Shown piece by piece: positions 18,001 to 24,000 of a stretch of 64,000 nt of DNA. Origin of the DNA: Candidatus Cloacimonadales bacterium. Its GTDB lineage: Bacteria; Cloacimonadota; Cloacimonadia; Cloacimonadales; JAFGVF01. A program made the position numbers. The number at the start of each line of letters is the position of its first letter. Position 1 is the first letter of the stretch. The stretch lies in contig OY762964.1 in NCBI GenBank assembly GCA_963667035.1, positions 736,001-800,000 of the forward strand, read 5' to 3'.

Positions 18001-21000
18001 ATCAATTAATACTAATGCAATACAGATAGCAATATAAGCATCCATTTAGACCCCTGAATATGTTTATTAGTTAATGATGCCATAGTATATACGGGAAAAT
18101 ATATCAGCAAGTTTTTTCCTGTATTTTTTAATACTCTTTCAAGTATTTTGTTTAAATCATGCAAACTTATTATGCGTTATAAAGTAAGCCTACTGATATA
18201 AGTAGGCTTCAGACTGTTGACAAAGCTATGAGTAAGATTTCATAGCTTTGTCTTTTTTTAGCTTAAAATAAGAACATCAATCATTGACAGATTTCTCCAA
18301 ATATTATACTTAAACCATCATAATTAGAGGTGGTTATGCTTAAAAAAGTTTCTGACACACAGTCCCAAATGGAGTTTGTAATAATAGATGATTTAGTACC
18401 GGTAGATCACATACTAAGGAAAATCGATAGCGTAATAGATTTTTCATTCATTTTAGATAGAACAGCGCATTTGTATTGTTCTACTACCGGTCGTCCTCCA
18501 ATTCATCCTATTACTCTTTTCAAAATGCTTTTTATTGGCTATCTATTCGGTATTCGCTCGGAAAGACAATTGGTCAAAGAGATTGAGGTCAATGTGGCTT
18601 ATCGTTGGTTCTTAGGCTTTGGACTAACTGATAAAGTACCTCATCACTCAGTCTTCAGTCAAAATCGTAGAAGGCGATTTAATGATAGCAGCGTATTCGA
18701 AGAGATTTTTATAGATATAGTGAAGTTAGGCATTAAACATGGATTAGTTGATGGGAAGATACTTTATAGCGACTCAACCCATCTAAAGGCAAATGCTAAT
18801 AAAGGTAAATTCGAGGATATTGAAGTTGAGGTATCCTCCAAGAGTTACTTGGAAGATCTTAACACAAGCGTTGATGAAGATCGGAAGGCTCATGGTAAGA
18901 AACCTTTACCTCCTAAGGATAACAATCTTAAAGGAGGAGCATCACCTAAAGTAAAAAATATCAAGTCTAGCACAACAGATCCCGATAGTGGTTTTATGAC
19001 CCGTGATAGAAAGCCTCAAGGCTTCTTCTACTTAGATCATAGGACAGTCGACCATAAAACGAACTATATAACCGATGTTCACATTACTCCCGGCAATGTA
19101 AATGATAGCACCTGCTATATTGACAGGTTACAGTTCCAACAAAAGGTTTATGGTTTTAATGTTCAGGCAGTAGGGCTTGATTCAGGATATGATACAATTA
19201 ACATTTGTAAGCAACTGGTAGATATGAATATTATGGGAGTCCTTGGCTACAAAAGACAGGGAGGTAAGAAAGGTCTATTTAAAAAGAACAAATTTACATA
19301 TAATTCCCGGAAGGATGTTTACATTTGTCCATGTAATAAAGAGTTAAATTATAGAACAACGAGCCGTGATGGCTATAAAGAATACAAGTCGAATCCTAGT
19401 GAATGCAAGAATTGTCCAATGCTAAGTAAATGTACAGAAAGTAAGTCTTCTCAAAAAGTAATCACTCGTCATGTCTGGGAAGAGAGCAAAGAGATAATCC
19501 ACAAGAATAGGTTAACATTATGTGGGAAAGAGATATACAAGAGGAGAAAAGAAACCATTGAGAGAAGCTTTGCCAATGCAAAGCAACTTCATGGCTACCG
19601 ATATGCAAAATATCGAGGAATAGAGCGAGTTCGAGAACAAGCTTATCTAACAGCTATCGTGCAAAATATCAAGAAACTCGTAAAATACCTTTTCAAAGGT
19701 AAATTAGGGAAATTAATAGCAAAATTTATCATCAATTACATGATTTTCAACTCCAATTTACACGAAAATAGAGCTAAATCTCGCATGTTTAGGTTTGGAC
19801 TCAGTTAAAATGAAGAAAAATGACTTTCAACAATATATCCATGTAAATTAGAATGTTTTTGTCAACAATCTGAAGCCTACTGATATAAGTAGGCTTAAAG
19901 ATTATTTATTCAACTATCAGTAGTTTCCGTATTGCTTTGTAAGAACTATTCTCCATTCTTATGAAATATAGACCTGAAGATACCCTTTTATTCCTGTCAT
20001 CAGACAAATCCCATTTTAGAGAACTTTGGTTCTTTCCATAACCGCCTCTCAGAGTTCTTATCTTTTGCCCCTTCAAATTGTAAACTTTAAACACAGGTTC
20101 GGAAGTTGAACTGTACTTGATTGTAACCGAGCTATTATTCATACTTGTAGGTGAAGGATATATTGAATCAAAAGAGTTAATGGCAACTACCTGAATCTCC
20201 TCGTTTGTACCGGTTGAAGTTACAGTAAAATTATACCATCTATCTTCTGGATAGTATGATGTATTAGTACCGTCTTCAGCAACAATTCTATAACTTACGG
20301 TGAATGTACCTGTGTGTTCATGATTAAACTCCGCCAGATAAGTATTGTCCCCTTGGTCATTCAATGTAAGAGTTTCTGTAATGCCGTCAATTTCATACTC
20401 CATGTACACTGTGTTTACCATGTAATTGTCAGTAACATCTGCGACTATTTCAAGAGGTAAAGCAGTATCGTTTGTAGATTCTATGGCTGTATGATTAATA
20501 ATAGGTGAGATGTTGTCTTCCGTAATTGAAAATTCATGAGGGTCAAGCATACCCATAATAGGTTGATTAACAGCTCTACCGGATTCATCTGCTGCATGAA
20601 TACAATAACTATATGTTGTGCCCGGGACAGGATTAAAAAGCTCGGAAGTATAAATGTTATTACCTGATTGGGTTAACGATAATAGCATTCTTGCTGGAAA
20701 CTCATCGTTTACTATTTCTACATATAGAGAATCTGCATATAATGCGGCACCGCTATAAGGATAAATATAAGCTTCAAAAGTAATAGGTTCGAGAGGTAAC
20801 TCGCCGTGATATGGAATATGCTCTACATAAAGCATGTCCTCATCAGCTAATTCATGAGTTCTACAATGAAGAGCGTCGGTTGATTCCCAATAGTTAGAAG
20901 TAGTATTAATTACCCCGTTTATTTCGTAACCGGGCATAGCATTTTGATATACCTGTAAAGCTGCATTATCATCAGAACTACCTGTAATTGGCACAAATAC

Positions 21001-24000
21001 TCTATTGTTCAGTATTAATGAGTTAGTGTATGGTTGGTTGCCGGGAGTGTTTACTCGATATACTTCATAAGGATAGCCCCATGCACAATCTTGATTGGAA
21101 AAATAGTTTGCAACTGCTTCTATCTCATCATATTGGGCATGATACTGAGGTACACTTCTTATCAACACTTTATCAGGAGCTAGAAATTTTCCCCAGCAAT
21201 CGATATGGTCTATATAGGTATTATTAGGATCATCTACTACATGATAGTTTGTAATACCTAAATATTGTTCCATAAGGGTATTAACATTTTGTTGATTGTT
21301 TCCGTTCTCTTCATATACTAGGTCACTTTGAGCAGCTCCGCCAAGTCCATCACACATGTAGTTTCCACCTGTTTGAACCAAGTCCATTCCATACAGGTTC
21401 AATCCATAAGTATTAGCAAATGTTATAGCGACTTCATCATCTTGATACCTTGGTCTGTTATAAACAAAATCTACAACTCCCAATTCGTCGTTACCATCCA
21501 AAATAAACCAAGGCCCGTAATCTCTAGCCCAATATGAATCTGTGCTTGTATTCAGGTAAGTAATATTACTCATGTTAACACCGGCAGACAAGAATGCGTT
21601 GTTACAACTATTTTGTTGATAACCGGTTACTAATGTGATAACTTCAATTTCTTCGGATAACAGAGCGACAAACTCAACCGGGATCCCAAGTGGATATCTT
21701 ATCATTACCGCATCCATTTGCTCAAATTCAGCGACTGCTCTAACAGGTCCGACAGGAGGTTGGGTTTCTTGAAAATCTCGTCCGATTTCGTCAGCTCTAT
21801 CAATCTCATCCGGAGTCATCCAGATAGGCTGAGAAGTAGGGTTTACCTCAAACCAGCGTTGGGTTCTATAGTAGAGTTCTGATTTCTCAGAGTATAAGCA
21901 AGTAAGACTTATAAATAATAAGCAAACAAGTATATTTTTTTTCATCGTATCTCCATGTTATATAGAGTTATATGTATTAATAACATATAAAATCCTCATA
22001 AATAACTTTACAAATCAAACTTATCATATAGTCAACCAATAATTACTCTTATTGTGAACGGATATGTTTTATGAATAACATAGATACTTTCAAAATGGAA
22101 CGTGAAAGATTGAATAAGCTTCTGGATAGCTATGGAAACAAGACCACAAAGAGATTCTTGAATTTGGATACGAATACTTACAATGAAGGAGCTTTATCAG
22201 AAAAGATTAAAGAACTTCTTGGACTTGTTGCTTCCACTGTGCTCAGGTGTGATGATTGCATCATGTATCATTTGGATAGATGCCGTCAATTGGAAGTTTC
22301 CGATGAAGAGCTTATTGAAGCTTTGAATGTTGCTCTTATTGTGGGTGGTTCAATAACAATTCCTCATCTTAGAAGAGCAATTGATGTGTGGGTAGAACTG
22401 AAAGACAAAATTTAAGCATTGTTACCGGAAAGGCAGAGTATAAATATTATTTAGCTAAACGCAGATATATATGATGAAACCTAGATTATCAGTAGCATTT
22501 CATTGGGTTGTGAGTTAGGAAGTAATCTATCCTGGATAGCTGTTGCTATTACATTGTCGTTAAAAATAACTCCCCATTCATTAAACAACCTACTTACCGA
22601 TTTAAAGATGGATAAGTCTAAAGAACAGATTAGCAACCTTTGTTTAATGGGACGTTGTTCTATCTCATCTATAACTGCCAGGTCATTTATTGCAACTTAG
22701 GCACTATTTAAAAGTTTCAATTCTTGGTTTAGTGGATAATTAGGTAAATGACACTGGGACCGCGGACATCCTGTCCGCATCTCTTCTGCTTCAATCCTTG
22801 ATTTAATGGATAGTAGGTAAATAACGCTTCCAAGGATAAGCGACATGAGCAATAAAATAGGTTTCAATCCTTGATTTAATGGATAGTAGGTAAATAACTC
22901 AGTACTATTGCCAGTTATTTTAATAAGGTCTGCCAGTTTCAATCCTTGATTTAATGGATAGTAGGTAAATAACTTTTGTTTCGAGGTAGCACAACAAATT
23001 GGAGTTGAGTTTCAATCCTTGATTTAATGGATAGTAGGTAAATAACTCATATTCTCACGTATATATTTAATTATCAGATGATTACAAAGAAATCTCAGAA
23101 CTGAATATCTGATAAAATCATGTGTGCTGATGCATAAAATACATCGGAATTTGCTTCTCGGGAACACGTAAACACTCTATAATAAAGGTCAAGGAGCAGA
23201 TTTCTATCAATTAAGCAATAATTTTGCCTCAGGAAAGATAAAATCAATTTAATATTTATTTCCTAATCAGTAATTGTCAATCAAAATATATTGTTAAAAC
23301 ATGCTCTTCCGAATTGTTCTGTCTTTAAATAGCTACTCTAATCTGAATAAATGGGAGGTATTCCTTTAACCGATTAACTGCATTTTATCAAGTATATAAT
23401 CCATAAAGACACCGGTCTTTATGGAGAATATTATATCATGTAGTTTACGTAGTCTTTTTTTTGGTAAAACTTTGACCTCCCTAGGGTGGATACTTTTAAG
23501 GGTGACTCGCCAGACATAACTATCCATCTTTGAACCAATTACCTCCCTTCTGCACCACCATTAAAGACATAAGAAATTCTATGGTGAAAGTTATCCACAC
23601 GATGTGGATAACTTTGGCGTTCGCCAAGGAGGGTCCAAGGAGGCTCCTTGGTGGATCCAATCCGGTTCCAATGTTTTTAATGGTCGCCTAGAAGGGGCGT
23701 AGAATGTTCATGACATGTTCATTTAGTGCGAATCATACATCTAACACTAGTTAATCCAGCAAGAATAGGGGGTTTTAGGACGTTCATCCGGCTATATGAA
23801 TTGTAGACATAAGAGTGGAATAGTTTACGTAGATGTTTGAATGAGATAAACATTACTAACATCCAACGCTATAATCAATTATGAAGATGAAAATACCGGA
23901 GCGGAAAACAAGGCAGATTTCTTAACACAAACTTATCAATCATATAACATACTTAAATGTAGTAAGTTACGGGTTCAGGTTGGCAACTATTCCATACCAT

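Follow-up and report, generated by a model that had tools for sequence, protein, structure and literature searches.

The gene described here lies in a 64,000-nucleotide stretch of the genome of a Candidatus Cloacimonadales bacterium (the window), and its product is related to the peptidylarginine deiminase of Porphyromonas gingivalis (PPAD). The open reading frame is intact upon translation, with an ATG start and no internal stop codons, and its parts are listed in table 1. A transposase adjoins the gene. The host genome consists of one 3.10-Mb contig (98% complete), and this is its only PPAD-type gene.

Table 1. Features of the PPAD-type gene, with coordinates in the window.
Feature	Coordinates	Strand	Residues and remarks	Basis
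Predicted secreted PPAD-type deiminase, whole gene	19906..21945	minus	679 aa; stop codon 19906-19908	ORF list and translation
Putative Sec-type signal peptide	21886..21945	minus	1-20; MKK followed by a hydrophobic stretch	Judged by eye from the translation, presumed cleavage site included
N-terminal pro-region	21775..21885	minus	21-57; ends with a conserved motif, TPDE..R..EIGRD, directly before Phe58	Conservation of basic residue
Catalytic domain (guanidino-modifying, five-bladed propeller)	20839..21774	minus	58-369; boundary with the Ig-like domain approximate	PDB alignment to PPAD and residue mapping
PPAD-type Ig-like domain	20515..20838	minus	370-477	PPAD alignment reaching chain residue 422
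Extra domain	20164..20514	minus	478-594; 117 aa, not in PPAD	Pfam, BLAST and Atlas searches
T9SS type-A C-terminal sorting domain	19909..20163	minus	595-679	PF18962 and TIGR04183, both above cut-off

The Pfam family PAD_porph (PF04371) is matched by residues 91-365 (7.8e-28), and the sorting domain is recognised both by Por_Secre_tail (PF18962; residues 595-677, 5.6e-7, 30.2 bits against a cut-off of 27) and by the NCBIfam model TIGR04183 (34.1 bits against 23), which confirms the secretion tail reported in the initial annotation. The pro-region ends in a pattern that is common in the family: a basic residue at position -1 or -2 relative to the first Phe of the domain is present in 71 of 87 rows in the clade of the query and in 69/95, 13/13 and 24/29 rows of the other stand-alone clades, as compared with 0-2 in the fused forms described below. 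Residues 478-594 correspond to no Pfam family, show no similarity to the Ig-like domain in BLAST, and gave only Atlas leads below 0.9; this region is probably a beta-sandwich spacer.

In the PDB search the five best matches are all PPAD structures (6i0x, 7e-125; 4yt9, 1.6e-122; 4ytg, 3.2e-121; 5ak7, 3.9e-120; 5ak8, 7.6e-119), which reproduces the values reported earlier for a match over the catalytic and Ig-like domains of PPAD; they are followed by agmatine deiminases, the best of which reaches 7.8e-10. At such E-values chance is excluded as the cause of the match. Residues 58-477 align with residues 2-422 of the PPAD chain (of 438), which would cover the catalytic and then the Ig-like domain, and the motifs DSYWARDY, NRPR, IDHIDCWGK, YTNSLILNN and TDALHCRTHE are all present in the alignment. 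PPAD catalysis depends on D130, H236, D238, N297 and C351, and the side chain and free carboxylate of its substrate are held by W127, I234, R152, R154 and Y233 (PMC4893104, PMC4487231). According to the alignment and residue mapping, the equivalents of all ten are kept (W139, D142, R164, R166, Y244, I245, H247, D249, N308 and C361), among which D142, H247, D249, N308 and C361 are the catalytic set, and R164, R166 and Y244 correspond to Arg152, Arg154 and Tyr233, the holders of the free carboxylate that give PPAD its exo-specificity. Among 286 distinct members of the family, 270 have the full signature; R152 is retained in 285, R154 in 284 and Y233 in 274 of the 286, the tyrosine being replaced by Ala or Gly in some Bacteroidota relatives.

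The similarity to PPAD (4YT9, 4YTG, 5AK7, 5AK8, 6I0X) thus extends end to end over both domains, and also to the signal peptide, the pro-region with its terminal basic residue, the T9SS tail and the co-existence of an RgpB-like protease in the host. The two proteins differ in that identity is about 47% (47.1% over 425 aa, a Swiss-Prot figure taken from the initial annotation), in the 117-aa domain before the tail (679 aa here, 556 aa stated for PPAD), and in the host, which here is a free-living, uncultured anaerobe of sludge or sediment type. Animal-type PADs and their bacterial relatives (PF03068) perform the same reaction on peptidyl-arginine, but they belong to another family, are calcium-dependent, act on internal arginines and are phyletically distinct from the pPAD type (PMC8826395; bioRxiv 10.1101/2020.07.16.207027).

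The family was previously found in 72 of 81 Cloacimonadota genomes; in the larger sample this near-universality holds, with matches in 137 of 151 genomes at E<=1e-20 (135 at E<=1e-60) and in 52 of 53 genera. Matches of comparable strength occur in only five of 301 evenly sampled Bacteroidota, and the enzyme is also present in rumen and faecal Bacteroidales MAGs. A recent foreign import of the gene was considered and rejected: its GC content (37%) matches that of its neighbours, and a 76%-identical copy is present in a genome of the same genus. Both FastTree and IQ-TREE place the query in a clade consisting of Cloacimonadota only. The trees comprise 294 rows, none of them recognisable as PPAD, and a degenerate pattern for one PPAD peptide had no match in the genome contigs searched. 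The P. gingivalis enzyme was therefore compared by bit scores against the PDB chains: 502 for a Bacteroidales MAG protein, 445 for protein P0172, 421 for the query, 352 for a fused domain and 350 for P0270. By this measure PPAD is closer to proteins of environmental Bacteroidales than to the query; strict orthology is therefore not established, and the designation "true orthologue" is too strong. Likewise, "old module" is an overstatement, since the deep nodes, on which its age and the direction of transfer depend, differ between FastTree and IQ-TREE; the fused forms, which are basal in FastTree, are not so in IQ-TREE, and their position at the root of the family was dismissed as unsupported.

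The genome contains 20 C25 (gingipain-like) genes above cut-off, 15 of which are T9SS-tailed according to a custom tail HMM and one more according to another search, which bears out the earlier count of at least 16 secreted proteases of this type. However, the Arg-specific S1 aspartate, within the signature E..GESD..GHGS..AC, is present in only one of the 20. In RgpB this residue, Asp163, forms a salt bridge with the P1 arginine (PMC4357240). The single RgpB-like gene (locus L205, ORF 610..4320, equivalent to positions 2,893,609-2,897,319 of genome G000) encodes 1236 aa and lies 2.1 Mb from the PPAD-type gene. Its product, which scores 322 bits against RgpB and 82 against Kgp and has the equivalents of His211, Cys244 and Asp163, is a putative Arg-specific gingipain partner of the deiminase.

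The open frames of 1100-2500 aa mentioned in the initial annotation turn out to be natural fusions of RgpB-like C25 and PPAD-type domains, so that the pairing of the two enzymes has more support than was apparent there. All three long Cloacimonadota frames checked are fusions of C25 and PPAD-type domains, nine of 30 long representatives scanned have the order Propeptide_C25, C25, C25_C and PAD_porph (two more partially), and at least 36 of the 151 Cloacimonadota genomes carry both domains in one frame. The natural fusions include a compact form of 1134 aa. Single C25-PPAD polypeptides are also found in MAGs labelled Thermoplasmatales, and adjacent genes in MAGs of Bacteroidales, Zixibacteria and Ignavibacteria; altogether, fusions or adjacent pairs are present in MAGs of five groups beyond Cloacimonadota. 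The linked C25 domains score 298 bits against RgpB and 90 against Kgp, and Asp163, His211 and Cys244 are present in 21 of 21 aligned. In comparison with RgpB (1CVR, 4IEF), both the pro-domain and the mature domain are matched by the L205 protein and the linked domains (322 and 298 bits), and Glu152 (Glu or Gln in the linked set), Asp163, His211 and Cys244 are kept; the differences are that these proteins are far longer, have other C-terminal domains and, in the fused forms, carry the deiminase on the same chain. In some lineages the fused protease bears dockerin or MAM domains, and no type-A T9SS tail was recognisable in the fused forms. The occurrence of an RgpB-like C25 protease and a PPAD-type deiminase as one polypeptide or as neighbouring genes is new; for P. 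gingivalis, no description of a protease-deiminase single chain was found in the literature search.

The coupling is not obligatory. The deiminase occurs with no RgpB-like match (E<=1e-70) in 11 of the 151 Cloacimonadota genomes and the reverse is seen in four, fusion was found in 0 of 8 in the family of the host genome, and in each of four Bacteroidota genomes a strong PPAD-type gene is accompanied by a single C25 match, presumably the sortase PorU, and by no RgpB-like gene. Fisher tests of co-occurrence (p = 2e-7 in Cloacimonadota, 1.9e-4 in Bacteroidota) are descriptive only, because relatives are non-independent and the thresholds were set after inspection of the data. The deiminase and the gingipain-like protease probably act as one protein-scavenging unit, because they are often fused or lie side by side in related microbes.

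With regard to secretion, the SprA/Sov translocon is above cut-off in the genome (472.7 bits summed), the PorP family gives only weak matches, and at least 136 ORFs have T9SS tails (a separate search gave 104 tail matches besides the PPAD-type gene). The tail and the translocon together make the PPAD-type protein a predicted T9SS cargo, on the assumption that the system functions in this phylum. The models of carbamate kinase and ornithine carbamoyltransferase are both above their cut-offs. A cytoplasmic arginine-deiminase-like gene is also present (233 bits, below the cut-off of 489), and therefore an extracellular source of citrulline is not required.

From the domain make-up, the conserved residues, the secretion signals, the distribution and the recurrent fusion or adjacency of both enzyme types, we infer a substrate, an order of action and a benefit for the cell. 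We consider it fairly probable that the protein is a secreted C-terminal-arginine deiminase, exported by the T9SS and acting after an RgpB-like protease in protein scavenging. Export would begin with the Sec pathway and be completed by the type IX system, which would recognise the C-terminal tail; outside the cell the enzyme would turn arginine at the C-terminus of peptides into citrulline, with release of ammonia, by Cys-His-Asn chemistry as in P. gingivalis PPAD. The likely substrates are arginine-ended peptides made outside the cell by the lone RgpB-like C25 protease and perhaps by other proteases, and the setting would be the protein scavenging that sustains these anaerobic fermenters. The cell could thereby gain ammonia, rid the peptides of their terminal charge, or supply its ornithine carbamoyltransferase and carbamate kinase with citrulline.

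The database names of relatives ("agmatine deiminase family protein" at NCBI and JGI) imply instead an agmatine deiminase of polyamine metabolism, and the protein does share with AguA (TIGR03380, NF010070; 2EWO, 2JER) the superfamily, PF04371 and Cys-His chemistry, and the AguA models and structures do match it, though weakly. However, these matches are far below the cut-offs (58.9 against 381.8 bits for TIGR03380, 60.4 against 483 for NF010070) and the structures score 7.8e-10 as compared with 7e-125 for PPAD. AguA is cytoplasmic and has neither an Ig-like domain nor a tail, whereas a signal peptide and both of these are found here; moreover, the residues that bind a free carboxylate, two arginines and a tyrosine, are kept, and agmatine has no such group. 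We regard this assignment as very improbable.

Two other functions deserve more weight, although both appear unlikely. The enzyme could act mainly on free L-arginine or another small carboxylated guanidino compound, in an extracellular arginine catabolism that is independent of proteases: the carboxylate-binding residues would fit free arginine too, the citrulline could be used by the carbamate kinase and ornithine carbamoyltransferase, and many genomes hold the deiminase without an RgpB-like protease. On the other hand, repeated fusion or adjacency to an endopeptidase is hard to explain without a peptide substrate, and PPAD is reported to be slow, if active at all, on free arginine (PMC4487231). 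Of similarly low probability is that it mainly modifies the surface and secreted proteins of its own cell, including T9SS cargo trimmed by Arg-proteases, and tunes surface charge, vesicles or biofilm rather than nutrition. PPAD is reported to citrullinate the own proteins of P. gingivalis with effects on vesicles, fimbriae and biofilm, and at least 136 tailed proteins are predicted to be exported here, but the protease fusions with dockerin or MAM domains point towards substrate-bound degradative complexes. A C-terminal-arginine deiminase serving protein scavenging remains our preferred interpretation, and the genomic data on distribution and fusion independently support the order in which the two enzymes are proposed to act.

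More tentatively, the Arg-gingipain-type protease and the PPAD-type exo-deiminase could form a recurrent unit of extracellular protein degradation in uncultured anaerobes that cuts after arginine and deiminates the new end, spread across several bacterial phyla and Thermoplasmatota archaea and so tightly coupled that it repeatedly became one polypeptide or operon. P. gingivalis would then have inherited or borrowed a scavenging tool from the environment and not have invented a virulence pair. Peptides ending in citrulline may pass from this unit to ornithine carbamoyltransferase and carbamate kinase, as an arginine-deiminase pathway with an extracellular first step.

PPAD has been studied almost solely as a virulence factor that acts with Arg-gingipain to produce peptide ends carrying citrulline, a suspected trigger of rheumatoid arthritis. 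The statement that it is unique among prokaryotes agrees with oral-microbiology reviews up to 2026, which describe it as unique or limited to three Porphyromonas species, but not with Cummings et al. 2021 (PMC8826395), who showed sequences of Cloacimonas and Lentimicrobium alongside that of PPAD and described the genes of this type as "more widespread than previously thought". In Cloacimonadota, which are bacteria of digesters and sediments, the PPAD type is standard equipment, and thousands of "agmatine deiminase family protein" entries in databases are probably mislabelled. Many natural variants, including single-chain protease-deiminases, are thus on offer for biochemistry. A phylum-wide PPAD type with the same specificity residues, its occurrence in rumen and faecal Bacteroidales and its repeated fusion to RgpB-like proteases would place the pair among the ordinary means by which anaerobes degrade protein.

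The deiminase gene is a single uninterrupted ORF with an ATG start on the minus strand, and the opposite (plus) strand of the same interval contains many stops. Its product carries a PAD_porph domain (Pfam, 7.8e-28, residues 91-365) and a C-terminal sorting domain for type IX secretion (T9SS tail), the latter detected by both Por_Secre_tail (residues 595-677; 5.6e-7; 30.2 bits, cut-off 27) and TIGR04183 of NCBIfam (34.1 bits, cut-off 23). The NCBIfam models for agmatine deiminase fall far short of their cut-offs, at 58.9 bits where 381.8 are required and 60.4 where 483 are. Among all PDB chains, the top five matches are the five sequences of PPAD, the Porphyromonas gingivalis peptidylarginine deiminase (7e-125 to 7.6e-119; chain 2-422 aligned to query 58-477), followed by agmatine deiminases at 7.8e-10 or weaker. 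Judged by eye, the translation opens with what looks like a Sec signal peptide (MKKNILVCLLFISLTCLYSE...). Because the ORF, Pfam, NCBIfam, PDB and N-terminus results agree, what the initial annotation observed of this gene is borne out, with the strand added: the gene is real and intact and encodes a predicted T9SS-secreted PPAD-type deiminase.

Catalysis in PPAD involves Asp130, His236, Asp238, Asn297 and Cys351, the free carboxylate of the substrate is held by Arg152, Arg154 and Tyr233, and Trp127 and Ile234 line the cavity (PMC4893104; PMC4487231). With PPAD numbering taken as chain position plus 43 (Cys351, which is chain 308, served as the check), the PDB alignment with the query preserves every one of the ten (W139, D142, R164, R166, Y244, I245, H247, D249, N308 and C361), as had been claimed for the catalytic and C-terminal-arginine-binding residues. 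A family alignment was made of 286 distinct catalytic-plus-Ig domains: besides that of the query, 141 belong to named genome records and 144 represent clusters. It shows the full ten-residue signature in 270; His236, Asn297 and Cys351 are invariant (286/286), and Arg152 and Arg154 are kept in 285 and 284. Agmatine is without a carboxylate to hold. The two arginines of PPAD are common to arginine deiminases and PADs (PMC4487231). In loci L213-L215 (genomes G337, G361, G317) and L210-L212 (G250, G298, G446) both arginines are kept and Tyr233 of the Michaelis loop is replaced by Ala or Gly; Ala is found in the deiminases of four Bacteroidota genomes with a strong PPAD-type gene but without an RgpB-like gene (RgpB being an Arg-gingipain of P. 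gingivalis), and Gly in a distant Bacteroidota subfamily. By the argument made about PADs in PMC4487231, this replacement could open the active site to other substrates, and Ala or Gly in this position may mark subfamilies with a different substrate range.

Mature PPAD begins at Ala44 (PMC4487231). Residues 21-57 of the query end in TPDE..R..EIGRD, followed by Phe58, a motif that stand-alone members of the family conserve. One or two places ahead of the first Phe of the domain, a basic residue is present in 71 of the 87 rows of the query's clade and in 69/95, 13/13 and 24/29 rows of three other stand-alone clades, and in only 0-2 rows per group of the fused forms, in which the domain is internal. 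Residue 43 of PPAD is presumably an arginine cleaved by gingipain, and processing of the query's pro-peptide by a protease is no more than a lead. The stretch 478-594 lacks a PPAD counterpart and could be assigned to no family by Pfam, BLAST against the Ig-like domain or the Atlas.

Features of the window and of the rest of the query's genome (G000)
Feature	Position	Strand	Remark
PPAD-type deiminase gene, 679 aa	19906..21945	-	
DDE transposase (DDE_Tnp_1_6, DUF772), 492 aa	18330-19808	+	adjoins 3' end of deiminase gene
Small CMD-family protein	22071-22415	+	flanks deiminase gene
T9SS-tailed endonuclease I protein, 1456 aa	24076-28446	+	Endonuclease I, two lamin-tail domains, PKD domains
RgpB-like gene, 1236 aa, T9SS-tailed	G000 2,894,311-2,895,306 (L205 ORF 610..4320)		C25 alignment
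Ornithine carbamoyltransferase gene	G000:C1:462593-463564	+	directly upstream of one of the C25 genes of 1648 aa
C25 gene, 1648 aa	G000:C1:463869 onward		

The genome (one contig, 3.10 Mb, 98% complete) holds a single PPAD-type gene, which is its sole PF04371 member, a SprA/Sov translocon above cut-off, and 136 ORFs of at least 300 aa ending in a T9SS tail, as judged by an HMM built from the family tails. Recent import of the deiminase gene is not indicated despite the adjoining transposase, because its GC is like that of its surroundings. The endonuclease I protein looks like a large secreted nuclease, possibly scavenging extracellular DNA.

Twenty matches to C25, the gingipain-type peptidase family, lie above cut-off. 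Of these, 15 have a T9SS tail by the family-tail HMM and a sixteenth by a separate tail match; the initial annotation had given 16 or more. A MAFFT alignment, anchored by a sequence aligned to RgpB and uncertain around Asp163 for the most divergent paralogues, shows Glu152, Asp163 (GESD), His211 (GHGS) and Cys244 in just one of the 20. The match of this gene to RgpB reaches 5.5e-95 (322 bits) for the mature domain and 1.5e-33 for the pro-domain, and that to Kgp, another gingipain, only 82 bits. Asp163 of RgpB forms a bidentate salt bridge to the P1 arginine (PMC4357240), and on its residues this single C25 gene looks Arg-specific. Five other C25 genes (G000:C1 1304075, 1988810, 552629, 1671639 and 1905589) have Trp, Tyr or Phe in the position of the catalytic His211; paralogues without it may be inactive protease-like surface proteins or misaligned divergent sequences. 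The position of the ornithine carbamoyltransferase gene next to a C25 gene is probably a coincidence.

The initial annotation had noted matches inside frames of 1100-2500 aa. Among 30 long cluster representatives, Pfam shows 9 to be fusions of Propeptide_C25, Peptidase_C25, Peptidase_C25_C and PAD_porph in one chain, and all three Cloacimonadota frames examined (2018, 1910 and 1721 aa) have the same architecture. A further two of the 30, which start at the C25 Ig-like domain, appear truncated at the N-terminus. In one fusion, the protease part scores 298 bits with RgpB, 123 with its pro-domain and 90 with Kgp and keeps Glu152, Asp163, His211 and Cys244; the deiminase part scores 352 bits with PPAD and keeps the DSYW.RDY, NRPR, TYIDHIDCW, PYTN and HCR motifs. 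Both domains lie in one frame in at least 36 of 151 Cloacimonadota genomes (33 in which contig and frame length matched between searches with the RgpB-like domain and the fusion-type PPAD domain, plus G016, G061 and G082), in compact (1134-1172 aa) or long (1586-2259 aa) forms, and in none of the eight genomes of the query's own family. Where a type-A T9SS tail would be expected, the fused proteins show none that is recognisable; their last 70 or so residues are FN3-like. The conserved end W..PGA..Y.V.RS..P.G.F..G.T... was seen in four of five fused proteins read (L202, L203, P0234, P0197); in the fifth (L204) the motif lies about 25 residues ahead of the C-terminus.

Outside this phylum, a scan with one fused representative followed by Pfam detected two fusions, of 1513 and 1256 aa and each truncated by the end of its contig, in MAGs labelled Thermoplasmatales. 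The dockerin-bearing fusion of 2197 aa among the long representatives carries this label too. For the 45.8-kb contig of the latter alone, mis-binning was checked: it also encodes glycerol-1-phosphate dehydrogenase (471.5 bits against an equivalog cut-off of 413), the archaeal lipid-backbone enzyme. Adjacent genes, C25 followed by PPAD-type, occur in a Thermoplasmatales MAG (48-bp gap), a Zixibacteria MAG and three Bacteroidales/Bacteroidota MAGs, where both products are T9SS-tailed, the deiminase has 567-570 aa, and each pair either shares a few bases of overlap or is separated by 25 bases; the reverse order is found in an Ignavibacteria MAG and a Cloacimonadota MAG. Asp163, His211 and Cys244 are kept in 21/21 aligned PPAD-linked C25 domains, a set without L261 and L254, which failed the length filter. 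Type I dockerins were seen on a fusion from a Thermoplasmatales-labelled MAG (L218/P0251) and on both genes of the Ignavibacteria pair (L261), which suggests assembly into cellulosome-like protein-degrading complexes; such a complex has been proposed for a Cloacimonadota C25 peptidase (PMC8542988).

PPAD-type matches are present in 137 of 151 evenly drawn Cloacimonadota genomes at E<=1e-20 (135 at <=1e-60; 128 of the 139 that are at least 90% complete) and in 52 of 53 genera, which upholds the claim of near-universality in the phylum. Among the 14 genomes lacking a match are all six of one family (one genus; 1.5-1.6 Mb, single contigs: G002, G005, G008, G017, G023, G064), and these reduced genomes have no C25 match either (0/6, versus 145/151 sample-wide), whereas almost every other genome sampled from the phylum has both. 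Only five of 301 evenly drawn Bacteroidota, including one on which the sample was centred, have a match at E<=1e-100; a further ten carry the distant subfamily (1e-41 to 1e-51, 31-36% identity). Named records place close relatives in Lentimicrobiaceae and other Bacteroidales (some from rumen or faeces), Sphingobacteriia, Marinimicrobia/Fidelibacterota, Delongbacteria, Gemmatimonadota, Eisenbacteria, Zixibacteria, Ignavibacteria, Chlorobiota, Spirochaetales and MAGs labelled Thermoplasmatales. The 1.84-billion-protein representative library yielded 551 clusters at E<=1e-30, and 5569 of 8000 clusters scored in the 90% library reached E<=1e-20; where a cluster there bears a name, it reads either 'agmatine deiminase family protein' or 'agmatine/peptidylarginine deiminase', and in one case 'peptidyl-arginine deiminase'.

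In Cloacimonadota (RgpB-like at E<=1e-70), 126 genomes have both genes, 11 the PPAD-type alone, 4 the RgpB-like alone and 10 neither, one of these last inferred from the tally. RgpB-like genes (E<=1e-30) are present in 9/301 Bacteroidota, five of them shared with the 15 deiminase-bearing genomes; of the five genomes with a strong PPAD-type gene, four have none, and each of these four has a single C25 match, of 1340-1400 aa, that we take to be PorU, the T9SS sortase. The link is frequent and specific and not obligatory, because PPAD-type genes occur without an RgpB-like gene in both samples.

The query had been called a true orthologue of PPAD, which goes further than the scores do: PPAD (chain 6i0x) scores 502 bits with a protein of a Lentimicrobium-type Bacteroidales MAG and 421 with the query (445 with representative P0172, 352 with the fused domain, 350 with P0270). 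The trees hold family rows without PPAD, which was compared by bit score. FastTree (294 rows) places the query, at support 97, in an 88-row clade; of the other rows, 67 are named Cloacimonadota, 16 are representatives without a name and 4 come from records that name no phylum. A quick IQ-TREE (81 rows, LG+G4) joins the query to a Cloacimonadota row at 100. The two trees disagree on the deep order. Fusions are spread over three lineages or more. The simplest reading of these sequence comparisons is that the query belongs to the PPAD subfamily and that the closest known relatives of PPAD are environmental Bacteroidales.

What might the cell gain? The genome encodes carbamate kinase (405.6 bits, cut-off 358) and, also above cut-off at 433 bits, ornithine carbamoyltransferase, so citrulline could yield ATP, and nothing ties this route to the query; an arginine-deiminase-like gene falls below cut-off (233 against 489 bits). 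The gain may equally be ammonia supply, charge removal or relief of product inhibition.

The statement that PPAD is still described as unique holds for oral-microbiology texts, which call it unique or confined to Porphyromonas (PMC13539308) or 'uniquely among microbes to date' (PMC4487231), but Cummings et al. (2021) regard pPAD genes as more widespread than had been assumed, and the labels of their supplementary figure S4 place two Cloacimonas acidaminovorans proteins, and Ca. Cloacimonas sp. and Lentimicrobium proteins, beside Q9RQJ2 (PPAD), so the bare existence of environmental relatives is already in print. Gingipain-like C25 peptidases have been reported in Cloacimonadota (PMC8542988, PMC8359207) and Thermoprofundales (PMC6461988); the word 'deiminase' is absent from the texts of these three, and no described C25-PPAD fusion or environmental pairing was found in the literature searched. 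The wider finding is worth following up: in several phyla, uncultured anaerobes repeatedly have an Arg-gingipain-type protease fused to a PPAD-type deiminase or encoded next to it.
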